This document shows, piece by piece, positions 340-24,824 of a DNA stretch of 25,797 bases. Position numbers and translations under genes: made by a program. Below the pieces are notes generated by a model. It was not told the origin of the DNA. It ran no database searches and saw nothing but the letters and a program-made list of their open reading frames with translations. Position 1 is the stretch's first letter. Every line of letters begins with the position of its first letter. Where the stretch lies: IMG/VR virus record IMGVR_UViG_3300022223_000285. One strand, written 5' to 3'. This DNA is from a virus (taxonomy: Duplodnaviria > Caudoviricetes).

Positions 340-1388
340 GACCATGTGATAACTCCGAGCACGCCGATCTGGCTGACTGTGTGAGTCAAGTCCGCGGCCG
401 GCACGGTAAGCGTGTGATCGGTCTCACCGGCGGCGAGCGATATCGCCTCATCAATATGCGACAGCAGTATGGTGCCGCCGGGCTCGGCTTCGCGGCGGAA
501 CAAATCCGCCAACTCGGCTTGCACGGCAGCCTGCACGGCCACAGTGTTCGGCGTGACACTGATGGTCATGTTGCGTACTACCGCAACCGGTGCCGCTGCT
601 GTTGGTGTAATGCCGGCCGGTGCTTCGGCATCGAGCTTGGCCTGCACGGCGGTCACGTCCGCTGCAAGCGGGATGCCGTTGGCGTAGGTGTCATCCATCA
701 TAAACCGCATTTTGACTTTGCCATCGCCGTCCTCAAGCGGATAACTCCATGCGCGCGTGACCCCAGCCACCTCCAGCGCCCAGGACACATAGTCATCTTT
801 CTTTCCGCCGGCCGGTGCGGCGGCGACGTATTGCCGCAAGCGTTCAAGCAGCTGCGCATTGGTCTCCTGGTCGGTGCCGCCGGTTAGTCCGCCCGCGGCC
901 ACGGTGGCTTGGCTGTTCACGCCCGCAATCGGGCTGGTCAGGGTCAATGTCACACCGGCCGCTTGATCGTTGATGCCGCCCTCGACGGCGGTGACAACAA
1001 TATCCACGGTACCGGCGGCCAGAGTGCCATCGGCGTTGGTCGTATAGGCCGTGCCATCGGCTGCATGCACTTCGGTACCAGCCAGGATGGTGGCAGATGC
1101 GCCACCGGTGAATGTCACCGTGCCGGTGCTCTTGGCTGCAGACTTCTTAACCATGCCACCGCCTTTCCAGTAGGCATGGCGTTCGAGCATGGCGCTGTCG
1201 GCCGTGTCGGGCAGGATCTGCTTTGCCGTGTGCGCAATGTAGCCATACAGGCCATGCGCCACGCCGGCCACGGCGCGGCCAATGGCAGTGAGCAGCGCAC
1301 GGGTCAGCAGCTTGGTGCCGCCGGTGACCTTGGTGCTGATATCGTTGCCGATGCGGTCTATGAGTGCGGTTAGGGTTGGTCGTGCCAC
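336..1388 (-). CDS. Baseplate J-like wedge protein (Mu gp47 family)
   Basis: 350 aa with N-terminal RPTL, PDTAD..L.RH, GGTDQETNAQL..RL and DYVSWALEVAGVTRAW motifs; synteny. Confidence 0.93.
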   Translation of the reverse strand: MARPTLTALIDRIGNDISTKVTGGTKLLTRALLTAIGRAVAGVAHGLYGYIAHTAKQILPDTADSAMLERHAYWKGGGMVKKSAAKSTGTVTFTGGASATILAGTEVHAADGTAYTTNADGTLAAGTVDIVVTAVEGGINDQAAGVTLTLTSPIAGVNSQATVAAGGLTGGTDQETNAQLLERLRQYVAAAPAGGKKDDYVSWALEVAGVTRAWSYPLEDGDGKVKMRFMMDDTYANGIPLAADVTAVQAKLDAEAPAGITPTAAAPVAVVRNMTISVTPNTVAVQAAVQAELADLFRREAEPGGTILLSHIDEAISLAAGETDHTLTVPAADLTHTVSQIGVLGVITWS

Positions 1389-1389
1389 A

Positions 1390-3165
1390 TCACACCTCGT
1401 ATGTGTTCGAGTAATAAATAGAATCGTCCGGCAGCGTGATGGCCACCGTCACGCCGATGCCATCGCTGCGGATCCGCGCGGTGCTGCAGTCGACCGCTTT
1501 GGCCAGCCCGGCAGGCACCATCCAGCGCAGCGCCTCGATCGCATACTCGCGCGCCTTGCGCAGGGTCTCGTCTGTGATCTTGCTGCGGTCAAGCAGCCAC
1601 AGCTTGCTGCCGATGGGTTCATCGAGATACGTGTCGGCCCAGTGGCCGCGCTTGTCGTGCGGGTCATCGAGCAGGCTTTCGTCATCAACACGCGCATCGG
1701 TAAACAGTGAGATCAAGATCGCTTCGTCCAGGCCATCGCTTGTCGCCAGGTCATCGCTCTCGCTCGGCAGCTCAGTCTCGCCGGTGATGACCCATTCCGG
1801 TGATCCAACAAAGGTGCCCACATGACCGTTGCCGGATGTGTCGGCCGTGGTCGTGCCGTAACCCTCCTCAATCGGCATGTGCAATACCAGCCCGGTCTCA
1901 TCCAAGTACTGGCCGGCGTAGCGCTCGGCCACTTCCTCGGGTGTGAGTAGGCGGTTGTATAAGCGCGCCGCATGCACAACATTATCGCCTGCCACATAGG
2001 CTTGCCCGATGCGCAGATCAGATGCTGAATTGATTGAGCCGGATTTTGCGGATATATCAAAGGATCCGGTTTCGACGCCGTTGATGTAACCGCGCACCAG
2101 ACCATCGCGATCGAATGTTGCGACCAGGTGCAATCGCTCATGAAGCTCGATTGCGCCGTTCGGTGATATGTTGCCCTCAACGAATGCGACCGTATCGCCA
2201 ATCAGTGCCCTCAATGCTCTCGAGCTGTTCACGCCAAAACGGAAACCAGACAGGCCGGCGCTGGCACCTTTATTTATAATGGCCTTGCTGTCGACAACAT
2301 CATAAACAGTCAGGATGGTTTCAATACTGAAATCACCGATATCAAAGTCCAGCGTCGGATGGGTTGCGACTGAAAGATAGTGATAGTTTGCCGTTCTGCT
2401 AACACGCAAACCAAACTCCGGCTTGGTCAGTCGGCGCTTCTCGGTGCCGGTGTAAATCCAAGAAGGCGCGCCAACAAAACTGCCGATATGACCATTGCCG
2501 GATTGGTCGTAGGTCTTTGTACCTTGGCCCTCGCGAAATGGCAGCCAGAGTTCCAGCCCGGCGTTGTTGCTGTATACGCCTGCTGCGTGTTCGGCGGCTT
2601 CGGTGGCATCGATGACACGGCTGTACATTCGGACGCCGAAGTAATCACCGTTATATGCAGCACTTTGGTGAGTGCCAATTCTCAGTTCATTGGTGTTGCC
2701 GATATCGCCAATCAGGCTGATATCAGTATCGAGCGTGTGCTGCCCGTCCACGTATTGGCTCAAGATACCTGCAGCGCGATCAATAACCCATAGAATTTTA
2801 TACCGCACACCACGTTTGAGAAGGTGCGACCTGTTCAATCGGGTTGTGCCATCATGCAAATAGAACCCGGTTGGCACATCAAGATTCGGATCCAGTTGAT
2901 AGCACGCGATACCATACCCACTAACTAGCCAGGCATCCCCCTTGCCAAGCATCCACATGGGGTTCACGCCATGCGGGTGCATGATATCGATCTCAACAGA
3001 AAAATCGGTGAGACCATGCCTGAGATTCGGGTGGTCAGGAATGTTGACATAATCCAAGCCATCCAAGCCCGTGAACCGGAGACCATACGTCGGCACTTCC
3101 ACCTCGCGGCGCAGTACGTCGATATCAAATTCCCCGTGGCTGTCTTGTTTGATTGCAATGTCCAT
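1390..3165 (-). CDS. Mu gp46-like baseplate protein with two inserted LamG/ConA-like beta-sandwich domains
   Basis: The N-terminal MDIAI..GEFDI and the C-terminal ~120 aa (DL..DGL..AILISLFTDAR...RGHWAD...IGSKLWLL.RSK...AREYA.EALRW) are typical of gp46. The middle holds two LamG-like repeats (HLVATFD...YING, LRIG, RLYNR.L...E, D.SGNGH.G). Confidence 0.85.
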   Translation of the reverse strand: MDIAIKQDSHGEFDIDVLRREVEVPTYGLRFTGLDGLDYVNIPDHPNLRHGLTDFSVEIDIMHPHGVNPMWMLGKGDAWLVSGYGIACYQLDPNLDVPTGFYLHDGTTRLNRSHLLKRGVRYKILWVIDRAAGILSQYVDGQHTLDTDISLIGDIGNTNELRIGTHQSAAYNGDYFGVRMYSRVIDATEAAEHAAGVYSNNAGLELWLPFREGQGTKTYDQSGNGHIGSFVGAPSWIYTGTEKRRLTKPEFGLRVSRTANYHYLSVATHPTLDFDIGDFSIETILTVYDVVDSKAIINKGASAGLSGFRFGVNSSRALRALIGDTVAFVEGNISPNGAIELHERLHLVATFDRDGLVRGYINGVETGSFDISAKSGSINSASDLRIGQAYVAGDNVVHAARLYNRLLTPEEVAERYAGQYLDETGLVLHMPIEEGYGTTTADTSGNGHVGTFVGSPEWVITGETELPSESDDLATSDGLDEAILISLFTDARVDDESLLDDPHDKRGHWADTYLDEPIGSKLWLLDRSKITDETLRKAREYAIEALRWMVPAGLAKAVDCSTARIRSDGIGVTVAITLPDDSIYYSNTYEV

Positions 3166-14213: not shown

Positions 14214-16814
14214 TTAAACCGCAGCGCGGGCCGTTACCGAGTAGGCGATCAGCGAAGTCAGGTGGCCGCGGATAGGCGTCGGCACTTTCATGGCGCTGAA
14301 TTCAGTGCCATACGCCTGTTTCTGACCGGTGGCATAACCATTAGCATCGGTTACCTCGAAGGGCTGGCCGGTGACAAATGGCTTGGCCACGGTGTAGGTC
14401 ATCACATTGCGCTGGCCGATAATGGCGCGCTCTTCGCCCAGGTCCACGCTCGGCGCATTGGTAGAAAATGCACCCACACCCTTGACGGTGGCCAGGTCGC
14501 CCTGGCTGGTGGTATCGGTACCGTTGCGCTTGCTGTCGGCCTCAAAGTTGTTGGCGTTGGTCACGCTGTTATTGAGCGTGTAGCTCATCAGCATGAAATC
14601 CGGCACCACAAACCGATCCTGTGCCATCAATGTTTTGCGATCACCAAAGGCGCGCAGCAAACCATTGAGGTGCAAGCCGATATCAGAGCCAGGATCGTCC
14701 ATGTCAAAGAATTCGACATTGGTTGAGTAGCTGTAGCTGATATCATCCACGCCGGCGGCGTTAGGTGGTGTGGCAGGCGTACCAGATTCATCTACAAACT
14801 GCACATAGCCCAGGTTGTAGTTGATGATGCTGTAATACGTGCCCGGTGCCTGGGTGCCGCTGCCGTCATACTCGGCAATCGCCGCACCATTGAGCCGCAC
14901 AACAATCGGATTTTCGAGGGCGCCGACCGCTGTGCCTTTCAGGTCGCGCTGCTGGTGTGGCCGCACGATCGGGAAGTTGGCAGTTTTCACAATGCTCTTG
15001 GCACCGGTCAGCTGCGCATCCAGGCCTTCATTGGCCACCGCGGTGGCGCTGTAGGCATCCGCGCTGCGCTGCAGCTCGTTGCAAATGCGGCGCACAATCA
15101 GCTCGCGCATGAATCGGGCATTGCTGGCCACGTTGCGGCCGTAAGCATCCCAGTTGATCGCGCTGGCACGGGTAAAGTGCATTACCTCTTCCGAGATAAT
15201 AAAGCCGAGCTTCATGGGCACGATGTACGCGGTATCCATGGCCTGCTGTACTGACGCGCGTCGAATCGGCTGGCCTTCATACACGACGCCATTGTTGAGA
15301 ATGGCGGAGCCATCACGTGTTTCATACGGGATCTCGGTGGTGGCTTGTGCGCTTGGGTCAGTCAGCGTCTGCAACAGTTCCAGCACGCGCAGATCGCTGA
15401 GCGCTTCCATGATCACGGTGCGCTGGAAACCGATCGGCAGCTGGGTATCGCCGATGCCGGTACTGCCAGCGGCAAACTGCTTGGCTTCATGCGCCAGGCG
15501 CACCGCATGGATGCGGTCAAACTCGGCCAGCACCATGCCGATCATGGGGTGTTGCTTGCTTGGGTCTTCGGCCAGCACCAGCTTGCGAGCGGCATGCTGG
15601 GAGGTGCCGCGCAGGCCCCTGTTGATCTCTTCCTGCAACTTCATCACCGAGTTGCGCTCATCAACCGTGATGTGCATGGATCCGGCCGGACCGGCATAGC
15701 CCATGCTGCTGAGCTTGGTGGCGGCCACCATCTTGTTGCCCAGGGCAATCTGGTGCTCAGCCAGCTTGGTCACCTGCTCGGCGGTCATGTTGGCGGTGAT
15801 CATGTCAGCGGCTGAGAGCAGCGCCTTGCGATCATCTTCAGACAGCTGCTTGAGGCCTTCGGCCTCTTCGATAGCGTCACTGAATTGCTTGACGTTGGCA
15901 TCCAGGCTCTCGGCCAGCTTCTTGACCTCTGCCTTTGCCTTGGCATCACGCTCATCCAGCAGCTTGTTGAGATCGTCAGCGGTAACACCGGCAGTGGGCG
16001 CTGGAATGTTCAGGCTGGAAAAATCCAGCTTGATGGCATCGTTGCCGGCCTTGCCGGCCTCGGCCAGCTGCTTGGCGGATTCAACAAAGGCATCAATCAC
16101 GGCGCCGATGGCGTCATCGTTTTCGCCCAGTGTTTTGCCCGCCACTTCCAGCTGGGCCACGTAGGCCGCAATTTGCTTTTCAGACAGGCCCTGCTCAGAT
16201 AGCTGCTTACGCAGCCGATCGATATGTTTTTTCATTTCTTGCTCCAGTTCTTCGGCAAGCATGTACGCCACGCGGTCGCTGACCAGCGCGGGCAGTTCAT
16301 CCTTGTCATGGGATAGGGTTACGGGGTCGAGGCCTTTCACGCGCGGGCGAATGGTCAGGCCGGCGCCAAACAGCAGCGGGCCATGCTCTTTTTGCGTTTC
16401 CGGGTGCAAGTAGTTATCCGTGAAGTCTATCGACAGGTAACGAAAGCCGCGCTTTTTCACAGCATCAATACCAAACTCGGTAAACTCCACCTCCGCGCGC
16501 AGTTTCTGCCCATCCATAAACAGCTTGCGGACAGTTGCCGCCGCGCCATCGCTGGGTGAGTGAGCCACATCAATGAAAATCTCCTGGCCATAGGTGTTGG
16601 CCTTGAAATTCTCAATGAAACTCTCAAACATTTTGCGCGTGAGCTTTACGGTTCCATAGAATGGATCCTTAAACTGCATCACCCGGGCCAGGTTCACGGT
16701 GGTGACCGTGTTGCCATTGTCAAAGCGCCGCGCGTCCACGCGATCCGAGTACAGCCGTATCGCGCCATCCAGCGCCGGTGCCTCAAATGTCATCCGCCTT
16801 GGTTTCAGTGCCAT
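14214..16814 (-). CDS. Fused prohead protease (Mu I-like) / scaffold / major capsid protein
   Basis: N-terminal protease motifs (IDVAH...GAA, F.YLS.DF, GAGLT.RP), a central coiled coil and a C-terminal capsid-sized region. The start is probably the ATG at 16814 (GGAG RBS) rather than 16847. No other capsid candidate is present. Confidence 0.85.
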   Translation of the reverse strand: MALKPRRMTFEAPALDGAIRLYSDRVDARRFDNGNTVTTVNLARVMQFKDPFYGTVKLTRKMFESFIENFKANTYGQEIFIDVAHSPSDGAAATVRKLFMDGQKLRAEVEFTEFGIDAVKKRGFRYLSIDFTDNYLHPETQKEHGPLLFGAGLTIRPRVKGLDPVTLSHDKDELPALVSDRVAYMLAEELEQEMKKHIDRLRKQLSEQGLSEKQIAAYVAQLEVAGKTLGENDDAIGAVIDAFVESAKQLAEAGKAGNDAIKLDFSSLNIPAPTAGVTADDLNKLLDERDAKAKAEVKKLAESLDANVKQFSDAIEEAEGLKQLSEDDRKALLSAADMITANMTAEQVTKLAEHQIALGNKMVAATKLSSMGYAGPAGSMHITVDERNSVMKLQEEINRGLRGTSQHAARKLVLAEDPSKQHPMIGMVLAEFDRIHAVRLAHEAKQFAAGSTGIGDTQLPIGFQRTVIMEALSDLRVLELLQTLTDPSAQATTEIPYETRDGSAILNNGVVYEGQPIRRASVQQAMDTAYIVPMKLGFIISEEVMHFTRASAINWDAYGRNVASNARFMRELIVRRICNELQRSADAYSATAVANEGLDAQLTGAKSIVKTANFPIVRPHQQRDLKGTAVGALENPIVVRLNGAAIAEYDGSGTQAPGTYYSIINYNLGYVQFVDESGTPATPPNAAGVDDISYSYSTNVEFFDMDDPGSDIGLHLNGLLRAFGDRKTLMAQDRFVVPDFMLMSYTLNNSVTNANNFEADSKRNGTDTTSQGDLATVKGVGAFSTNAPSVDLGEERAIIGQRNVMTYTVAKPFVTGQPFEVTDANGYATGQKQAYGTEFSAMKVPTPIRGHLTSLIAYSVTARAAV

Positions 16815-16826
16815 CTCAATCTCCAC

Positions 16827-16866
16827 AAAAAAGCCGAGCCACCGCATCCACGGTATTGCTCGGCTT
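16827..16866 (-). terminator. Terminator/attenuator-like hairpin in the capsid operon leader
   Basis: Minus strand reads AAGCCGAGC-N18-GCTCGGCTT-TTTT, ending just before the RBS. Confidence 0.55.
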
Positions 16867-16939
16867 CTCGCTTTCGCGCCTGGTGGCGCGCGTTATGCCC
16901 TGATTTCCGGTTTTTGGCCGGGTTTCCGGCCAGTTATCC

Positions 16940-16986
16940 CGAATCTAGGCAAAAAGATTGGACAAAAAAAGGGGGATCGTGTCACG
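16940..16986 (-). promoter_or_regulatory. Putative activator-dependent late promoter, copy 1 (capsid/tail operon)
   Basis: 33/47 ungapped identity with 24830-24876; CGTGACA box, CCCC-T-tract-GTCCA, and -10-like TAGATT. Confidence 0.75.
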
Positions 16987-17214
16987 GCAAGACAGGGAAA
17001 AATCCAGCCGTGTTTGTGTTTTCTTATAATTATTCTGTAAGGCAATATCGAGCAAAAAGGCAGACGTTTTACAGATAATCGAATCAGAAGGCTGAATGAT
17101 TGAAAAAACGGCAAGGAATCACAACAAATGTTGTCATGGGCTCACCTTGTATCACGCGCGGTACTGGGGTACTGTTCCGCCTACGGAACGCAGATAATAA
17201 TGCGAGTTGAAAGA

Positions 17215-17234
17215 GTACACTCTACTGCTCAGCC
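17215..17234. repeat. 20-bp exact direct repeat, copy 1 (GTACACTCTACTGCTCAGCC)
   Basis: Identical to 17365-17384; both copies are followed closely by TGGGAC. Confidence 0.95.
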
Positions 17235-17250
17235 ACTTGGGACAGAGCAC

Positions 17251-17281
17251 AAAAAAGCCCGGCACTCAGCCGGGCTTTTTT
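17251..17281. terminator. Bidirectional intrinsic terminator
   Basis: AAAAAAGCCCGGC-ACTCA-GCCGGGCTTTTTT; begins 7 nt after the CCA of the tRNA-like gene. Confidence 0.92.
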
Positions 17282-17287
17282 GCTATC

Positions 17288-17416
17288 TGGTGTCGCCGGC
17301 GGGACTTGAACCCGCATGATCCAGGACACTCTCTGAGAGTAGAACCCGGCAATATGCTGGGTTTGTACACTCTACTGCTCAGCCCTGGGACTCTAGCCTG
17401 TTTGAGCTACAGCGAC
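17288..17416 (-). ncRNA. tRNA-like RNA (129 nt) with encoded CCA and a 58-nt structured insert replacing the anticodon loop
   Basis: GTCGCTG-TA-GCTC-AAACAGGCTA-GAGT-C-CCAGG-[58 nt]-CCTGG-ATCAT-GCGGG-TTCAAGT-CCCGC-CGGCGAC-A-CCA: 7-bp acceptor, 4-bp D stem, 5-bp anticodon stem and canonical T arm. Confidence 0.88.
17365..17384. repeat. 20-bp exact direct repeat, copy 2 (5' side of the expanded anticodon arm)
   Basis: Identical to 17215-17234, offset 150 bp. Confidence 0.95.
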
Positions 17417-17427
17417 ATTGTGAACAC

Positions 17428-17433
17428 ATTATA
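17428..17433 (-). promoter_or_regulatory. Sigma70 -10 element for the tRNA-like RNA
   Basis: Perfect TATAAT ending 11 nt upstream of the mature 5' G, implying a ~5-nt leader; no good -35. Confidence 0.6.
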
Positions 17434-17481
17434 TGCAGTGTCCATGCTTGCACCTAGCACTTTATTTACATGCGCTAAAAG

Positions 17482-17511
17482 TTAAAAACCCGCTGCTATC
17501 GTGCCGGGTTT
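17482..17511 (-). terminator. Probable terminator of the terS-MuF operon
   Basis: Minus strand reads AAACCCG-GCACGATAGCAG-CGGGTTT-TTAACTTTT, about 100 nt after the last ORF. Confidence 0.45.
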
Positions 17512-17612
17512 ATTCATTATCGTGCACAAAAACTTTCATGATCCTGAAAGTCTCACTGCACTGGGAGCTATTGTTGTATTTCCTACCGAAAAAACTGCAC
17601 CCAGCGTGTTGA

Positions 17613-17867
17613 TCAGGCCTCAATTTCAATCACAAAAGAGCAGGCTGGGCAGCTATACCGGTCGAGATGGTTACCACTAGGCTCGTTTTTCATCTCTGTT
17701 GGCAGGCCTTTTATCATGAAACATCGCGGACATAATTTGCCATCCTCTAGCCTGTAGGCGTCGTATCGAGACTGCGCAGCTTCCAGATCAACCGGCAAGG
17801 AAGATCCATCCTGGATGGATTCAAGAATATATTCAGCCTCGCTCAATAAATCGTTGTTCATAGCCAT
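17613..17867 (-). CDS. Small zinc-ribbon protein (CPRC...CPAC)
   Basis: 84 aa, GAGG RBS, two CxxC motifs, AT-richer than the structural genes. Confidence 0.7.
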   Translation of the reverse strand: MAMNNDLLSEAEYILESIQDGSSLPVDLEAAQSRYDAYRLEDGKLCPRCFMIKGLPTEMKNEPSGNHLDRYSCPACSFVIEIEA

Positions 17868-17874
17868 TCCTCGG

Positions 17875-18060
17875 TTATCGTTGATAAACCACCGGCACCT
17901 TCACCCATCCCTTGCACTGCCGGCACTTCGCCTCAGCCGTGCCGGCGGGCAGGATCCGCACCACGCGCGACTTGAGCGCCACACCATCAAACACCACGCT
18001 TTTGCATTGTGTGCAGGCAACATGCGGCCGGGTGACCAGGTTGGCGACGGTTGCCGTCAT
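17875..18060 (-). CDS. Com-like zinc-finger protein
   Basis: 61 aa, V.CTQC...F...EAKCRQCK, similar in size and pattern to Mu Com (IRCKNC..LF...EIRCPRCK); ATGA-coupled to the upstream ORF. Confidence 0.6.
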   Translation of the reverse strand: MTATVANLVTRPHVACTQCKSVVFDGVALKSRVVRILPAGTAEAKCRQCKGWVKVPVVYQR

Positions 18061-18266
18061 GCATCGGCCTCATCAGGAACGTCAGCACCCAGCTCATCAT
18101 CAGTTATCTCACCTCGCTCGCCGGCGATGGCTTTGTGCATCTCTGTCACCAGGTACTCCACCTTGTCATCCGGCACGCTCAACGGGCTAAATGTGAGCTC
18201 GCCGAATTTTTGCCTGTACTCCATCTGCAGTACCGGAAAATCCGTATCATGTAGATCAACCATCAA
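18057..18266 (-). CDS. Small acidic protein, candidate immunity protein for the MuF toxin domain
   Basis: 69 aa, overlaps the MuF stop, GGAGG RBS. Confidence 0.55.
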   Translation of the reverse strand: MMVDLHDTDFPVLQMEYRQKFGELTFSPLSVPDDKVEYLVTEMHKAIAGERGEITDDELGADVPDEADA

Positions 18267-20337
18267 TCACCTCCTGCAATATATCCTCAACAAACTTGGA
18301 AAAATTGGGTACAAACGTCCGCATATATTCCCGCTGGTATGTTCCAGCCTTGTAGTCAAGCAGGCAAAACGTATTGGCAAAGGCCTCAGCCTGTCGACCA
18401 AACCCGGAGCGCTGCTTGTAGTAGGCATTAGAATGGCCCCACCCCACCCGGTTGCGGGTGACAGCCCCGGCCAGGTCGGCCATGTGTCCGGCATCGGGAT
18501 GCTTGAACATCGATTCACAGAGTATGGCAGTATCACCATATCGCTTGCCGTTGGCCAGCAGTATAGCCGCATGATCATTGGTTATCTCTATATCCGGGCT
18601 TTTGAGCAATAAATCAAATATGTCATTACCGCCGGGCAGCTGCTTGCGTGCGGCGGCGGCGGCGCTGGCCACATCGCCATGCTCACGAATAAAATCATTC
18701 ACATCCAGAGACCGCGCCTGGTTATAGGCGCCACTTGAAAAGCGCCGTTTTGCCAGTGATGGATGCCTTTTCTTGGCACCCTTGAAATAGTTTTCTTGCA
18801 GCTGCCTGATATGCACATCATCGGCCTCCAGCGCGGCCGTGCCCTTGCGACCGGATGAGATATAATTGCGATAAAATGTGGTTTCGTGCTCTCCCTTGCT
18901 TTCCTTCCAAAGTCCAATCTTATCATCCAGATAGTGGCCATACTCATGGCGCATGGTGCCTTGCCCGGATAATGTATCCGGGTGCTTGCCGGCCATGTGA
19001 ATTTTGCCATTAGAATAATATGCACCGCCGGTAGTCTTGGGTATTTCGCCAGGGGCATGAAAACGCGCCGCTGATTTTTTCAGAGTGTCGCTGTTGAATG
19101 TGCCGGCCTGATCCCATCGATCGAAAAACTCATTGGAGCGGCGATTTGGCGAGCCTGGCTCCAGCGTTGGCAGGTTTGGTTTGATATTAACCGCCACCGG
19201 CTTGGCAATGATTGCGGTAGGCGGCCCAGGCACCGGCATCAATTTGGCTACATCAATGCCGCGCTTCTCAAACCGATTTTTTAATACTCGCCATGGCGTT
19301 GCGATTTCATTCTGTTTGAGGATGCCGGCATTAAATGCTGCCTGCTTTTTCTGGCTCCCCAGCACGCCGGTCTGCACGCTGGCTGATTGGCTCCCCAGCC
19401 AATCCAGTCGATCCTGCTTGCCGGCCCGGTCATCCGCAGTCACTTCATCATCAAACACCATCTCCACAAAGCTCAACGTGTTGGGATGCGCCGGCCAAGG
19501 GCAGGCTGACCGGTTCGGGTACACACCAGGACCAAGGCCATACAGGTTGGCGCTTGCATGCATATCACAGATATCCACGCGCGGGTGGTTGGGTGACAAC
19601 AAAAACCGCCAGCCGACAAACCCCTCCACCTGCTCACCGCCGGCCATGTAGGCCTCGCCATGCGCGCGGTTGATCTCGGTGCGGAATACGCGCCGCGCCT
19701 GCCAATAGGGTGCATCGTCACCTTGCATCAGCGTGCCGGCTGCCACCTTGGCCACGCCGTGCGCATTGGCGATGCCGAGTTTGTCGGCAAGATCCGTCGG
19801 CACGGTGATGCCCTTGGCCAGGTACTCCTGCGCGGCCTTGCTGGCGTTGTGGCCCTGGATAATGGCGCTCTGGATCTGGCGGCCCATGATCTCGCGTGCG
19901 TGGTTACTGTTACGCCACAGGCGATCGCTCAGCTGCAGGCCATCCTCTGCCACAAAGTTGCGCACAAACAGTGCCGCCTCTTCCGCCACCTGGAAACTGG
20001 CCAGGCCGATGCCATCGTAAACACCGGCGCCGTACTTGGCGGCCTGGTCAATGCCATCCCATAGCATCTGATCACGCGCCAGCTCCAGCGAGCGCAGGCG
20101 ACCGTTCACCTGGCCAAGCAGCTGCTGCATCGTATCCAGGCGCAGACTGCCACGATCATCACCATAACTGCGGATGACATTCTCGATCTCGGTGCGGGTT
20201 TGCAGGTACAGCGCCTCCAGGTCGTTGAGTGCATCCCGATCCAGCTTGCGCATCGATACCTGGGCGGCATTGGTGCCACGCTTGATCGCCGCCTTGGTCG
20301 CGGTGCGAGCATTGGTTGCCAGTGCCACGCCTGTCAT
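18256..20337 (-). CDS. MuF / SPP1 gp7-like head protein with a C-terminal zincin metallopeptidase extension
   Basis: MuF motifs (LSDRLW, R..RTEINRA, DICD, PAHPN), a Pro-rich linker, then HEYGH and a downstream EAFA. Confidence 0.85.
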   Translation of the reverse strand: MTGVALATNARTATKAAIKRGTNAAQVSMRKLDRDALNDLEALYLQTRTEIENVIRSYGDDRGSLRLDTMQQLLGQVNGRLRSLELARDQMLWDGIDQAAKYGAGVYDGIGLASFQVAEEAALFVRNFVAEDGLQLSDRLWRNSNHAREIMGRQIQSAIIQGHNASKAAQEYLAKGITVPTDLADKLGIANAHGVAKVAAGTLMQGDDAPYWQARRVFRTEINRAHGEAYMAGGEQVEGFVGWRFLLSPNHPRVDICDMHASANLYGLGPGVYPNRSACPWPAHPNTLSFVEMVFDDEVTADDRAGKQDRLDWLGSQSASVQTGVLGSQKKQAAFNAGILKQNEIATPWRVLKNRFEKRGIDVAKLMPVPGPPTAIIAKPVAVNIKPNLPTLEPGSPNRRSNEFFDRWDQAGTFNSDTLKKSAARFHAPGEIPKTTGGAYYSNGKIHMAGKHPDTLSGQGTMRHEYGHYLDDKIGLWKESKGEHETTFYRNYISSGRKGTAALEADDVHIRQLQENYFKGAKKRHPSLAKRRFSSGAYNQARSLDVNDFIREHGDVASAAAAARKQLPGGNDIFDLLLKSPDIEITNDHAAILLANGKRYGDTAILCESMFKHPDAGHMADLAGAVTRNRVGWGHSNAYYKQRSGFGRQAEAFANTFCLLDYKAGTYQREYMRTFVPNFSKFVEDILQEVIDG

Positions 20338-21749
20338 TTTGCACTTCTCGTGGTGGATACATCGGTTGCACTCTCGCCCTTGCGTCCATTGCCCGGCGTA
20401 ATGCTCACGCGATTGCCGCCGGCAATCTGGTTGGGCGCTGGGTAAGGGTTGCCGGCAGCGGCTTGATCTTCTTTGCGCTCCAGCTCGGTTTCATAATTCA
20501 GGCCGGCAGTCTCAAACACGGTGCGATCACTGGCGCCCATGGCCTGATACTTGATCGCGCGATCGGCGGCCTGGTTCGGTGTTTCAGTCTTGCGCTCAAC
20601 AAATTCAATCTCAAAATCACCAAACACATCCGGATTGATACCCTGCAGCAACAGGTCGAGGTAAAAACCTAACTTGTACACATAGCTGAGCGTATCCTGC
20701 AGCGCGTCAACCTCATCAAAGTAGTCACGCTTGAGATCTTCCAGCACATCACGCGCCAGGTCGCCGGTATAGCCAAACAGGCCTTTAGGTGCCGGGCTGC
20801 CGGCATAGAATGTATCGAGCAGGTGCACCACATCCGCGATCTGGTCCAGGTTGGCATCACCTGCCACGCTGGACACGGCGCCCTTTTTGTTCAGATAAAA
20901 ATCGGCGGTGATATCGTTTTGATCGCCCTCCACCCGGGCGCGATATTTTTCAATGTCGGACTCGCTCGCGCCTTCCAGCACGTGCGCCAGGCGTTGCGGT
21001 GCACGTGTGCGCCGGCGGATCACCAGGTCCTCCTCGGTCATACGCAGTTTCTGCCACGCGGGACGGGTGGCATCAAGGTATGGCCTGCCCAGGCTGCCCA
21101 TATCGTCAAAATTATCCGGCGTCAGGCGCACCAGGGACATTTGCCACAGCGGAAACTGGGCGATCTCTTTGCCCATGGTGTAGTCATACTGGATATAGGC
21201 CACGCGCGGATCCTTGAATGCGCCGTTGGGCGCGACTTGCGGCACAATGGTCTCGGTTGGCATGCGGTAACCGGCCACCACAGACTTGCTGTCAGGTGCC
21301 GGCACCCATTGCATAGGCAGGTTGCCCTCCATCATAAATCCGCGAAAGTCACTCTCCAGCTTTTCGCGCCGGTTCAGATTCAGCCGGCGATAAAAACGAT
21401 CCCAGCTGCGCAGCAGCACCTTGTTGTTGCCTGTGCCCGGTTTAATCATCACACCCTTTTTGGTTGCCATGCGGGCCGTGCGCTTGTGGATCTCCTTCAC
21501 GCGGCCATCAAGCCTGTCCATCTCACGCAGGTCCATGATGGCCTGGCGCAGATCCGTGCTCACATACATCAGCTGGTACAGGTAGCGGATCCGGTCTTGC
21601 TCTCGGGTGCGATAGCCACGCTCACCGGCGCCGGCCGGCAGCACACCGGCGCGATACATTGCCTGCTTGGTGGCATCAGCGCTGAATTGCATGCCGGGTA
21701 TCATGCCTGTCAGGCGTTGCTGTATTTCAAACGGGTTCAGTTTTTTCAT
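20334..21749 (-). CDS. Portal protein
   Basis: 471 aa, between terL and MuF; G..YLD..R..W..L...E..LVI.R..RAP.R portal-like segment. Confidence 0.85.
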   Translation of the reverse strand: MKKLNPFEIQQRLTGMIPGMQFSADATKQAMYRAGVLPAGAGERGYRTREQDRIRYLYQLMYVSTDLRQAIMDLREMDRLDGRVKEIHKRTARMATKKGVMIKPGTGNNKVLLRSWDRFYRRLNLNRREKLESDFRGFMMEGNLPMQWVPAPDSKSVVAGYRMPTETIVPQVAPNGAFKDPRVAYIQYDYTMGKEIAQFPLWQMSLVRLTPDNFDDMGSLGRPYLDATRPAWQKLRMTEEDLVIRRRTRAPQRLAHVLEGASESDIEKYRARVEGDQNDITADFYLNKKGAVSSVAGDANLDQIADVVHLLDTFYAGSPAPKGLFGYTGDLARDVLEDLKRDYFDEVDALQDTLSYVYKLGFYLDLLLQGINPDVFGDFEIEFVERKTETPNQAADRAIKYQAMGASDRTVFETAGLNYETELERKEDQAAAGNPYPAPNQIAGGNRVSITPGNGRKGESATDVSTTRSAK

Positions 21750-21753
21750 GGCG

Positions 21754-23448
21754 TCATCCTGTCGCGCGCAGTTTCTGCCCCAGCAGCTTGGCGCGGTTGG
21801 TGTGATTGATCTGTATGATTGATGGCACGATCAGCGCGCCACGAGTAACCAGCGCCCAGTGCGCTGCCATGTAGGCATCAAAGCAGTCATCACCCAGCTT
21901 GGCGTCCGCCATCTTGTAGGTTGAATAACTGGTTTTGGTTTGCATGGGCACGATGTTGGTGATCTGTCGCTGCAGCAGTCGCATATCCTGCTCAGTCTGC
22001 GTGAGCTTGTCGGCATCGCAATCTTCGACGTATGGCATGGCCGCCTGGTGCGAGTGGAAAGAGCTGCGCACGGCTTGCGCCATGCTGTGCTTGGTCATGC
22101 CCTCAAAGCGCAGCGGCGCAAACGCCCATTCCGACCAGGTGCTGGCCGTGCTTTCGCCCTCGCCGATATTGCGCCGGTTGATGGTGGTCAGGTTGTTGAA
22201 ATACAGCTGATCATTCAGGTTGGTCATCATGCCAATGCCATAGGCGTCACCGATCGCGCAATCCGGATCAAAGTATTGCCAGTACGCCAGCAGATCCGCC
22301 TCAACAATTTTTTCATCCGTGCCCGGTGGCCAGGTGCGGGCATAGCGTGTGCAGGTAAAATTGCCAATCTGCTCCAGCACAACAAAAGCATATCTTGATG
22401 ACTCCTTCCGCTCACCGTGACCGGAATGATCATAGCCAAACGATATCAATCCGGATTTTTTATACTTCTCGCCCGGCATTGGCTCAACAATTTCCAGCCC
22501 TACCTCAAAGCCGATATGCAGCGCCCGGCGCAGCTTCTCCTCCCAGACCAGGTTGCGGCTGGCAATGTTGATGCACAGCAGCTGCCGCACAAACTCATCC
22601 TCACTGAGCTCGTCTTTCATCTGCATGATGAATGATCGCTGCAGCAGGTCCATCTCCATGGCCAGCATCGCATTGGCAATGGGGATCGGGTACTTGTAGG
22701 TCTTAACATCCACCGCATCGGCACTCAGCAAGTCTGCCGCAATCATGCGCTGCAGCAGGTTGCGCGCAGCGTCGCCAAACACGGCGCCGATCACGCGATA
22801 CGTGCCGGAGATCGCCATATCAGCCAGGGTATCCGCGCCCTTGAAAACACCAGTGATGCGGATCTTTGGATCATTGCGGCTCTGCTTGCTCGCGCCCAGG
22901 CGGCGCGAGGATCCCAGCATCAACAAAAAGCGCGAATCCAGGCGCGCCTTCGGCATGTCGTCAACCTCTTCCAGGCTGGCCTTGGTCAGATCACCACCGT
23001 CCACCTGGGCCATGATGCCGTAGGCCTGCGCTTTGCTCCGGTTGGCAAATTCATAGCGGGTGTCACTCATCTGCTTGCGGCCCGACTTGAACGCCAGGTA
23101 ATTGCTCAGGACCGGCGATCGGCGAATGGCATCCAGGTGATAATTGAGGTTTACAATCGCCTGGGCTTCGCGCGGTGCCACAATGCCCAGCTCCTGATCT
23201 GGATTGCAGGCATTATCCTTGAGCTCATACATCTCCTTGCACGCCGTTTTGCCGGTACGGCGGCTGGAAAAGTCGATGGTGTTGTTGTGCTCATCCATCT
23301 CCTGCATTTTCAGCAGCTGCACCTGGTCAAGCTCCACATTGTGCACATGCTTGTGCCAGAGCCCGTGGCTGTCGGCATAGCGCAGCACCTCGCGCTCCGC
23401 CACATTCTGCAGCTGGATACGCTTCCGGGCGCTGATACGCTCAGGCAT
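21754..23448 (-). CDS. terL: Terminase large subunit
   Basis: Walker A SRRTGKT, VAPREAQA, Walker B SLEEVDD, RNase H-like FGYD and terminal DD.FDA. Confidence 0.92.
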   Translation of the reverse strand: MPERISARKRIQLQNVAEREVLRYADSHGLWHKHVHNVELDQVQLLKMQEMDEHNNTIDFSSRRTGKTACKEMYELKDNACNPDQELGIVAPREAQAIVNLNYHLDAIRRSPVLSNYLAFKSGRKQMSDTRYEFANRSKAQAYGIMAQVDGGDLTKASLEEVDDMPKARLDSRFLLMLGSSRRLGASKQSRNDPKIRITGVFKGADTLADMAISGTYRVIGAVFGDAARNLLQRMIAADLLSADAVDVKTYKYPIPIANAMLAMEMDLLQRSFIMQMKDELSEDEFVRQLLCINIASRNLVWEEKLRRALHIGFEVGLEIVEPMPGEKYKKSGLISFGYDHSGHGERKESSRYAFVVLEQIGNFTCTRYARTWPPGTDEKIVEADLLAYWQYFDPDCAIGDAYGIGMMTNLNDQLYFNNLTTINRRNIGEGESTASTWSEWAFAPLRFEGMTKHSMAQAVRSSFHSHQAAMPYVEDCDADKLTQTEQDMRLLQRQITNIVPMQTKTSYSTYKMADAKLGDDCFDAYMAAHWALVTRGALIVPSIIQINHTNRAKLLGQKLRATG

Positions 23449-23893
23449 TGCGCATCTCCCATTTTACTTTTTCTTTTAATGGGTGTTTATCAGACCTCTC
23501 TCTGTTTTCCCTACTCCATGATCCACCACCAGCTGGGCCCATAAATCTCCATCCGGCGGCGCGCAAGCTGGCACCACCCTCCTCTGGCAAGGTGTAGGTT
23601 ATTATGCCGGTAAAACCCAGAGCCTTTGCAGCTCGCCATGCTGCGGCGTATAAAAACGAACATGCATTTTTATACCCGTCCGTACAAAGCCTATTTACCT
23701 CGAGTGTTGCCCCATCATCTGCATGCCGTGAGACAGGCCTGCCAACAATGGCCACACCTCTAATCTTAACGCCATCACTCACTGCAATACTGAATTTATG
23801 ACCGGTGGCGGCCTTGTGGTGCCGGTGATAGTACCGGACAAACTCATTTGCCTGTCTTAAAGATAGCGGCACAAGTCTCATATGCTCACTCAC
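23441..23893 (-). CDS. XF1762-family / Mom-like GNAT-fold putative DNA modification protein
   Basis: AN.FV...HRHH, GVAIVGRPV.R..DDG.TLEV.RLC, NACSFLY.A and ITYTL..E.G.SLRA.GW motifs. Probable start is the GTG at 23893 (GGAGGT 8 nt upstream). Confidence 0.8.
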   Translation of the reverse strand: MSEHMRLVPLSLRQANEFVRYYHRHHKAATGHKFSIAVSDGVKIRGVAIVGRPVSRHADDGATLEVNRLCTDGYKNACSFLYAAAWRAAKALGFTGIITYTLPEEGGASLRAAGWRFMGPAGGGSWSRENRERSDKHPLKEKVKWEMRNA

Positions 23894-24824
23894 GGCGCAC
23901 CACCTCCGCATCGATCACATCGCCCTTGATCGGTGACGTGTTGCGGTTGATGAGCTCAATGAGTTTCTGCTGTCCCTTTGTCTGGTGCTCCAGGAATTGC
24001 TGCATGGTCTCGCGGTCATTCTCGGCATGCTCCAGAAAGCCCTGGGTGATCTCCTGCTCATCCTGCACCTTGGCAGTCATGCCCATGTCGCCCAGCGCCA
24101 GGTTGTTTTTGCCAATGAATTCCATCAGCGGTTTGAGCAACGGATGGGCTCGCAGCTCCGTCAGCACCTCCTTGGCACCGGTGTCCGGATCCGTCACCTC
24201 GCCAATATGCAGGCGGCCCTCTTTATCGAAACCATAAACCGGGGATTCGATCTGCACACCCTTGCTGATAATGCCCAGCAGCATGTCATCGATGATCGCG
24301 CGGAGAGTTGCCTGCAGTTCTGCGTTGTATCGCTGCAGCTTGCTCGGATCCTGCTGCTCAAATGCAGCCAGGTGTTTCATATAGAGCTCGGTTCGAATCA
24401 AACACACCTTTTCATCAAAACACTCCAGGGAGCGCCGATATCGGCAACCGTTGCAGGCGTCATACTTGCCAGGCTTTGCGGGGAAATATCGGGCCACCTT
24501 CGCGTGCAGGCCGGTGGTCATCCGGTTAAACCGGGTAATCAGCGCCTCCTGCGGTGTAGGGTGTCCCTCCAGGTTCGCCGCGCTGGATGCCTTGCCCTCC
24601 GGCGTCTTCGGCCCCGTAGCGCTCGCCCAGCCCTTTAGCAGATTGCGCTGCCAATGCGCCTGCGGCGCCTCATCACCGCACTCAGGACACCGGCCAAAGT
24701 ACTCCCACGGATGCCACGGACGTGACTCATCGGGCTCCACCCTGGTTGGTGCAGCCTCAAACTTCTCGCCGCAGCTGCAGATAAACTTCGCAGCCGGCAG
24801 TTGATCATCGGATTTTTCACCCAT
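23886..24824 (-). CDS. Probable terminase small subunit with Cys-rich Zn-binding segments
   Basis: First gene of the packaging operon; TGPKTPEGK..S..N...G motif common in TerS-like proteins; CxC..CxxC and CxxC..C..C clusters. Confidence 0.7.
   Translation of the reverse strand: MGEKSDDQLPAAKFICSCGEKFEAAPTRVEPDESRPWHPWEYFGRCPECGDEAPQAHWQRNLLKGWASATGPKTPEGKASSAANLEGHPTPQEALITRFNRMTTGLHAKVARYFPAKPGKYDACNGCRYRRSLECFDEKVCLIRTELYMKHLAAFEQQDPSKLQRYNAELQATLRAIIDDMLLGIISKGVQIESPVYGFDKEGRLHIGEVTDPDTGAKEVLTELRAHPLLKPLMEFIGKNNLALGDMGMTAKVQDEQEITQGFLEHAENDRETMQQFLEHQTKGQQKLIELINRNTSPIKGDVIDAEVVRRE

Follow-up and report, generated by a model that had tools for sequence, protein, structure and literature searches.

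An exact 20-nucleotide direct repeat shared by a prophage transfer RNA look-alike gene and a site across its two-way terminator: a possible convergent antisense pair

Direct repeats that are read in opposite senses can yield RNAs that pair with each other. As described in PMC7472228, par of pAD1 is a type I toxin-antitoxin system composed of RNA I (the fst messenger RNA) and RNA II, in which convergent promoters, a two-way terminator and the direct repeats DRa and DRb, read oppositely, give two complementary RNAs. Here, a locus that recalls part of this layout is reported from a stretch of 25,797 nucleotides (nt), hereafter the window, of IMG/VR virus record IMGVR_UViG_3300022223_000285 (Duplodnaviria; Caudoviricetes). 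The locus consists of a gene for a transfer RNA (tRNA) look-alike with an enlarged anticodon arm, a two-way terminator next to it and, on the other side of this terminator, a second copy of 20 nt from the arm.

Two further kinds of RNA are close to the one in question. C4 of P1/P7 and CI of P4 are described as phage antisense RNAs that are cut out by RNase P, are expressed in lysogens and base-pair with targets encoded alongside them (PMC5320573, PMC5499578). An engineered 'tRNA scaffold' has been presented for the expression of recombinant RNA in E. coli (PMC3753655). The gene in the window resembles such a construct in its general build. The scaffold design reportedly grafts a foreign hairpin in place of the anticodon loop, which leads to processing by the host and to stability. 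The 3′ external spacer of E. coli glyW-cysT-leuZ, another tRNA-linked RNA, is said to pair with and titrate a small regulatory RNA.

The repeat and the tRNA look-alike gene

The 20-mer GTACACTCTACTGCTCAGCC occurs on the plus strand at 17215-17234 and again at 17365-17384, and is thus a direct repeat. The first-pass annotation of this DNA had claimed such an exact pair on either side of a terminator, and both pattern search and alignment confirm it. Even with up to three mismatches allowed, these are the only 2 matches in the window; 100 shuffles that preserved dinucleotides had on average 0.01 matches and never two or more (0/100), in agreement with the claim that the pair is not due to chance. 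The window corresponds to bases 3-25799 of contig C14 in a 2.96-Mb genome of 18 contigs, and throughout this genome the 20-mer is present only at these two sites; with a tolerance of four mismatches a single further site appears (C1:59988, 4 mismatches), about the level expected by chance. Further copies of the 20-mer and of the rest of the arm were sought across the same genome and none was found.

Gapped local alignment extends the repeat to 27 identities in 29 columns (Table 1). The 2-nt indel followed by TGGGAC that had been reported is right in net length, and the alignment resolves it into two separate single bases that are extra in copy 1, both in the portion matching the anticodon-stem strand. 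Outside the repeat core the residual local score of 16 is at the level of 300 shuffles (15.4 ± 2.1, maximum 25), so the repeat is short and sharply bounded and no longer duplication surrounds it. The two blocks enclose a segment of 121 bp, and copy 1 starts 36 nt and ends 7 nt ahead of the A-run of the terminator, its end being 14 nt ahead of the stem.

Four public DNA runs containing the locus, all sediment metagenomes, were examined as contigs. The Logan contigs of X1 and X2, which are possible sources of this DNA, and of X3, which is another sample, each span both copies unchanged; an assembly artefact is ruled out by this agreement between separate runs. X3 holds a variant strain (a single contig, depth 4) with 4 substitutions in ~1150 nt, at 16761, 16785, 17051 and 17353, the last of which (T>G) is at the centre of the arm's apical loop. 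The heptamer ACACTCT has three sites in the window (17217, 17326 and 17367, +), all inside this 150-bp locus, and genome-wide ACACTCT/AGAGUGU is rare (45 + 57 sites against ~180 expected per strand). Within the look-alike RNA each of the two arm bulges presents AGAGUGU, and copy 1 has it once more.

Copy 2 lies in a minus-strand gene with the body of a tRNA. The Rfam tRNA model RF00005 matches 17291-17416 (-) over its full length (model positions 1-71) with 39.9 bits (cut-off 29), and the acceptor stem, D arm, T arm and 5-nt variable loop are canonical, as in a class I body. In the RF00005 alignment, 58 nt occupy the place of the 7-nt anticodon loop and no decoding loop is found. The predicted fold is a cloverleaf with a long irregular hairpin as its anticodon arm (-52.6 kcal/mol, z -4.2, with 0/200 shuffles as stable). 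In the numbering of the RNA, the 20-mer of copy 2 covers positions 33-52, namely the last pair of the anticodon stem and the 5′ half of the 58-nt insert, and the whole block covers positions 26-52, from the 5′ strand of the anticodon stem through the same half of the insert. The bulge G47-A54 (GUGUACAA) is unpaired with p > 0.8 in this fold and A46 is mostly paired, which bears out the earlier suggestion that the bulge is exposed.

ARAGORN at default settings calls no tRNA at this gene, and with introns allowed proposes tRNA-Leu(gag) with a 49-nt intron, the removal of which would leave the loop CUGAGUG (U33, U37). A spliced tRNA-Leu was rejected: the body is of class I, position 37 is U, one splice point falls inside a helix and no bacterial splicing signal is evident. 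A transfer-messenger RNA (tmRNA) was likewise rejected, none being called by ARAGORN -m, and none of the host tRNAs closely resembles the gene. Judged by these features, it is treated here as a non-decoding tRNA look-alike. Rfam matches below threshold, among them AgrB (25.6 bits, threshold 40) and Thr leader, were set aside because every one of them depends on the terminator hairpin. The whole genome, G000, has 41 tRNA genes by ARAGORN and no tmRNA gene, though it is rated 99.9% complete; the tmRNA scan covered all but 993 bases, a gap that may account for the absence.

Table 1. Coordinates of the locus and of neighbouring features in the window
Feature	Position	Strand	Description
tRNA look-alike gene	17288..17416	-	129 nt including encoded CCA; Rfam RF00005 and predicted fold
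58-nt insert ('cargo')	17326..17383	-	irregular hairpin: 8-nt 5′ bulge GUGUACAA, 6-nt 3′ bulge AGAGUG, small apical loop
Repeat copy 1	17215..17243	.	exact 20-mer 17215-17234 in a 29-nt block; outside any recognised gene
Repeat copy 2	17365..17391	.	exact 20-mer 17365-17384 in a 27-nt block; minus-RNA positions 26-52
Two-way intrinsic terminator	17251..17281	.	A6, 7-bp GC stem, 5-nt loop, T6; hairpin 17257-17275; inverted repeat I1
Upstream terminator and look-alike promoter	17417..17530	-	ends 84-aa gene; TATAAT at 17433-17428
Candidate -10 box TATAAT	17025..17030	+	for predicted ~245-nt plus RNA (~17037-17281)
33-aa open reading frame	17096..17197	+	GAAGG Shine-Dalgarno-like box; hydrophilic; no family match
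Terminator-like hairpin and U6	16827..16864	-	directly before GGAG and ATG 16814 of capsid gene
Head protease-scaffold-capsid fusion gene	14214..16847	-	Pfam Mu-like_Pro; PHROG head maturation protease; longest open reading frame
84-aa zinc-ribbon-like open reading frame	17613..17867	-	last gene ahead of look-alike module; weak zinc-ribbon matches
Head-morphogenesis F-like protein	18256-20337	-	
Portal	20334-21749	-	
Mom-like/XF1762 protein	23441-23911	-	PHROG 1384 E 1.5e-37; NCBIfam XF1762 family E 2e-61

Terminator, promoters and the proposed antisense pair

The encoded CCA end of the look-alike is 7 nt from an intrinsic terminator that, by its sequence of A-run, hairpin and T-run, would be common to convergent transcripts, and the initial description of it as bidirectional holds in this respect. 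A simple terminator scan missed the hairpin, and the two-way assignment rests on the sequence together with inverted repeat I1. Similar hairpins are found in 8 of 60 related genomes, solely as terminators.

On its other side, the look-alike is preceded by 110 nt of upstream sequence (17417-17530) that is 76-79% identical to the host rplI-dnaB spacer (C16:24007-24091, L002/L012). The likeness includes the TATAAT, which is perfect and scores 7.9 bits with a promoter weight matrix. It seems that the module has taken over a copy of a host housekeeping promoter, and the look-alike is probably transcribed from the prophage by the host housekeeping polymerase. Having its own host-derived promoter and its own terminator, it is, as far as its sequence tells, a self-contained 'moron', with the head-assembly genes of a Mu-like prophage on one side and the capsid gene on the other.

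Since the repeats are direct, transcripts of opposite strands are complementary across them and transcripts of the same strand are identical. Because the copies flank a two-way terminator, a plus-strand RNA ending there would carry the complement of the look-alike's arm. A convergent antisense pair is the function of the repeat that we favour, though tentatively and well short of conviction. In the mechanism proposed, the look-alike would be made in lysogens, cut by RNase P and stabilised by its tRNA body. The plus RNA, predicted to end at the two-way terminator, would hold a perfect 20-nt complement of the arm's 5′ half (with 6 nt more after a small loop), located just 5′ of its terminator hairpin and A-rich linker. 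This position of copy 1 relative to the terminator is where the seed region of a terminator-ended plus-strand small RNA would lie. The open bulge may seed the pairing just upstream of the plus RNA's terminator hairpin, and the ensuing 20-bp (+6-bp) duplex could open the plus RNA to RNase III or remove its protective 3′ hairpin. Alternatively, it may be the plus RNA that unfolds and inactivates the look-alike.

The 20+6-nt pairing proposed at first reading is predicted by co-folding to be favourable, with a net gain after opening of the arm of -27.2 kcal/mol for the 245-nt plus RNA and -22.1 kcal/mol for an 80-nt version. Both differences between the blocks are confined to the 7-9 nt that match the tRNA anticodon stem, and the 20 cargo nt, bulged and paired alike, are perfect. 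This pattern is in weak accord with selection on the full-length duplex, as a post hoc observation that is not significant alone.

A number of results weigh against the antisense pair. The pairing energy is not independent evidence, since it follows automatically from the repeat. The plus-strand transcript across copy 1 is putative and is predicted from a lone TATAAT. This hexamer is present as first annotated, and its 6.4 bits exceed the 99.9th percentile of the window (5.4 bits), but as a promoter it has neither a usable -35 nor a TG extension (extended -10), and a consensus promoter scan of 16700-18300 gives no plus-strand promoter. The weight matrix was built from assumed frequencies, and comparable candidates are plentiful in this AT-rich region. 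The strain in X3 has no substitution in either copy (0 of its 4), and these are too few to inform on constraint.

The open reading frames (ORFs) of the locus do not supply a toxin. Those of 33, 36 and 63 amino acids (aa) on the plus strand and of 17 and 37 aa on the minus strand include none that is hydrophobic (best 15-residue hydropathy ≤1.1) and none with a family match, and the predicted plus RNA has no recognisable product. The 33-aa ORF inside it is probably not a gene; it is the sole ORF here with a Shine-Dalgarno-like box on the predicted plus RNA, and copy 1 is 3′ of it. A 17-codon ORF, MTTFVVIPCRFFNHSAF, having a good AAGGUGA box, is situated at 17084-17137 (-), downstream of copy 1 on the minus strand. 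The predicted plus RNA would cover all of it, and it is too short and too little hydrophobic for a known type I toxin.

The antisense pair also gains no backing from relatives, as the module of look-alike and repeat is a singleton within the collections searched. Relatives of the capsid fusion protein, at 41-61% identity, were found in IMG/VR (L014, 61%; L015, 54%), in one GTDB genome (L016, 60%) and in 6 of 399 other genomes of the class, three of these being full-length (L019-L021, 41-45%). An Rfam scan of the six full-length relatives (L014-L016, L019-L021) detected no tRNA-like gene, without exception (0/6), and none of their upstream genes has a homologue among those of the window. The capsid gene is preceded in them by a spacer of ~50-580 bp. 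The absence of the second copy from these relatives is not a refutation of the antisense pair, since their loci are without the whole module.

Searches with the locus itself gave the same picture. BLASTN against 50,697 phage records produced no match at 1e-5, and at E ≤5 reached 88 records, where all of the 30 matches listed cover the terminator stretch only. In IMG/VR, exact patterns taken from the D arm, from the 20-mer and from the T arm with the acceptor each had 0 matches, and a scan of JGI metagenomes with a 21-mer of the D arm matched only the window's own contig of 108,912 nt. The 60 related genomes match at the terminator only, and 102 other genomes of the order have 0 matches. No tRNA-like gene was detected by Rfam in L025 and L026, the relatives of the F-like protein scanned (the weak matches L027 and L028 being left aside), and the 84-aa ORF has no relatives in IMG/VR.

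Two degenerate patterns of the architecture retrieved 11 other phage tRNA look-alikes that bear inserts (L029-L039). The inserts are unrelated in sequence to that of the window, and none of the 11 has a partner repeat of at least 12 nt within 1.5 kb, which counts further against a paired function. Two of them, on the IMG/VR contigs L038 at 1271-1400 (+) and L039 at 1493-1640 (+), have a T arm (GCGGGTTCAAGTCCCGC) identical to that of the window and anticodon arms enlarged by ~60-75 nt. In L039, a second T arm is present just upstream, and AAGCC-type repeats are common to the neighbours.

Other explanations of the repeat

A neutral duplication scar is ranked close behind the antisense pair, as a possibility to be taken seriously though not as a probable one. 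According to this explanation, a single copying event during the building or insertion of the arm or module, whether slippage, template switching or patch repair, duplicated the 27-29-nt block, which has no function in itself. The sharp edges of the block with dissimilar flanks are what such an event would leave, and the entire 798-bp spacer in which the locus is situated is an insertion relative to the six capsid relatives. That the locus is a singleton and that a partner repeat is absent from all 11 other insert-bearing look-alikes (0/11) point in the same direction. Moreover, the arm's apical hairpin and the terminator hairpin are 75% alike (repeat D6), and this likeness, along with the occurrence of all three ACACTCT sites of the window at this one locus, suggests local reuse of sequence. 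Two indels have arisen in the 7-9 nt that flank the 20 perfect nt of the block, which speaks weakly against a recent neutral event. The scar would also be right beside a two-way terminator by coincidence, and an arrangement X-Y-X with a Y of 121 bp and no other duplication is not given by a simple single-step mechanism.

The second copy may instead act on the same strand, which we regard as unlikely. Copy 1, in a minus-sense read-through or capsid-leader RNA, would compete as a mimic for the arm's 3′ half, or as a decoy for a protein that binds the arm. The minus RNA has the appropriate order of 5′ half, complementary 3′ half, terminator and second copy of the 5′ half, a geometry that we take to resemble seqA-seqB-seqC of P4 immunity. 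In its favour, the rare motif AGAGUGU is present twice in the bulges of the look-alike and again in copy 1, small zinc-ribbon ORFs are found just upstream, and phages are known to have RNase P-processed RNAs whose targets belong to the same operon. Against this, pairing of the 3′ half with this sequence amounts to just 5 + 6 (+ up to 6) pairs with interruptions, that half is already tied up within the arm, and identity at the bulged bases would be unneeded. As copy 1 is located after the terminator, it cannot affect termination there, and family scans recognised no RNA-binding family in the neighbouring ORFs.

Quite improbable is a substrate or remnant of recombination, either as an att-type core at the look-alike or as direct repeats that permit deletion of 150 bp comprising the look-alike's 3′ part and the terminator. 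Direct repeats of 27-29 nt bracket a defined 121-bp segment, and tRNA genes and their anticodon arms are classical sites of integration. Copy 1 is not followed by any remnant of a T arm or acceptor, and identity ends after 27-29 nt on both sides, so the extent expected of an att site is not seen. The block is without dyad symmetry, family scans found no recombinase gene in the window, and no contig in the four runs joins across the repeats, though contigs hide rare forms.

It would be more surprising still if the look-alike were a natural programmable 'tRNA-framed guide' whose 20-nt element directs a partner to the matching DNA before the capsid promoter, or to an RNA made from that DNA, and so gates late expression. 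The narrower version, which elaborates the guide-to-DNA alternative of the first-pass annotation and has the 20 nt bring an effector to copy 1 as double-stranded DNA before that promoter, is the least credible of all. What invites it is that an RNA gene matches DNA close by over exactly 20 nt, ~230-260 bp upstream of the best candidate for the promoter on the minus strand. It is left unsupported, with no nuclease and no guide-using family such as Argonaute, Cas or TnpB recognised among the window ORFs (several of which matched no family), the supposed guide mostly base-paired within the arm, no second target in the genome and no family of such loci with varying guides found. A CRISPR-like repeat or RNA anti-CRISPR was rejected, as the genome holds no other copies or arrays.

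Prophage context and comparison with known systems

Family scans identify the window as the late part of a Mu-like prophage; its genes, which all run on the minus strand, include those for baseplate, tape measure, tube and sheath. The spacer between the 84-aa ORF and the capsid gene contains no recognisable protein gene, and a decayed pseudogene was rejected as neither tblastn nor family scans gave a signal. Because the start of the longest ORF (16847) falls within the terminator-like hairpin, the true start of the capsid gene is probably the ATG at 16814; the relative L014 has the same hairpin-U-run layout at 1345-1385. The best minus-strand promoter candidate before this gene has its -35 at 16985 and its -10 at 16962. 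Upstream of the 84-aa ORF, a 61-aa ORF (17875-18060) has two CxxC pairs, as in small zinc-ribbon regulators, and the Mom-like DNA-modification gene is positioned just upstream of the presumed terminase gene.

Set beside par of pAD1 as described, the locus has a two-way terminator and a direct repeat arranged for reading in opposite senses, where the plus transcript is a predicted one. The convergent promoters of par have an unequal counterpart: the minus strand has a good host-derived promoter, and the plus strand a lone TATAAT without a -35, so that the plus promoter is putative. The same holds for the repeats, since copy 2 is inside a well-supported minus-strand gene and transcription of copy 1 on the plus strand is only predicted. 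In contrast to the two repeats described for par, there is one repeat block here, and copy 1, in place of covering a ribosome-binding site, falls on the 3′ side in the predicted plus RNA. Furthermore, no small hydrophobic toxin ORF is present, and a complete tRNA look-alike takes the role of partner RNA.

The likeness to C4 and CI concerns the kind of RNA proposed, a prophage RNA that would be processed by RNase P and pair with a target encoded next to it. As they are described, C4 and CI are hairpin-type RNase P substrates without a T loop, whereas the RNA in the window has a D arm, a T arm and CCA; the C4 model RF01695 has no match in 16840-17630 at E ≤10. The described targets of C4 and CI are on the same strand, whereas perfect pairing here requires the opposite one. 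A C4 antisense RNA (Rfam 64.7 bits) was encountered in L026 at 2946-3032 (+), on an IMG/VR contig with an F-like protein of 42% identity, followed by a small ORF whose ribosome-binding site CAAAGGA matches the C4 loop. It adjoins a large serine recombinase, is not syntenic with the window and is uninformative for this slot.

Among phage tRNA look-alikes, L038 and L039 come nearest, being phage-borne with canonical acceptor, D and T arms and a long hairpin in place of a decodable loop; the unrelated inserts of L029-L039 and the lack of a nearby insert copy in any of them set the locus apart. It differs also from the glyW-cysT-leuZ sponge, in which the pairing element is reportedly a spacer released by processing, whereas here it is within the tRNA body. 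If the repeat is merely a scar, the prophage would still carry a 'moron' of a non-decoding tRNA look-alike under a promoter copied from the host dnaB region. If the antisense pair is real, a concrete partner would be at hand for one member of a large unexplained group, the phage tRNA look-alikes with enlarged anticodon arms, and two kinds of element that are already known, the logic of par and the RNase P-processed antisense RNA of phages, would be found combined.

The closest parallel in structure is the tRNA scaffold, which, from what is reported of its details, likewise has a hairpin replacing the anticodon loop on a complete tRNA body. The scaffold is a laboratory design, whereas the window holds a natural prophage gene for which stability and processing are presumed from its tRNA body. 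Should the antisense pair be confirmed, the locus would represent a natural antisense regulator built into the anticodon arm of an otherwise complete tRNA body, the same design that engineers have used for stabilising recombinant RNA, joined here with the direct-repeat and two-way-terminator logic of par.

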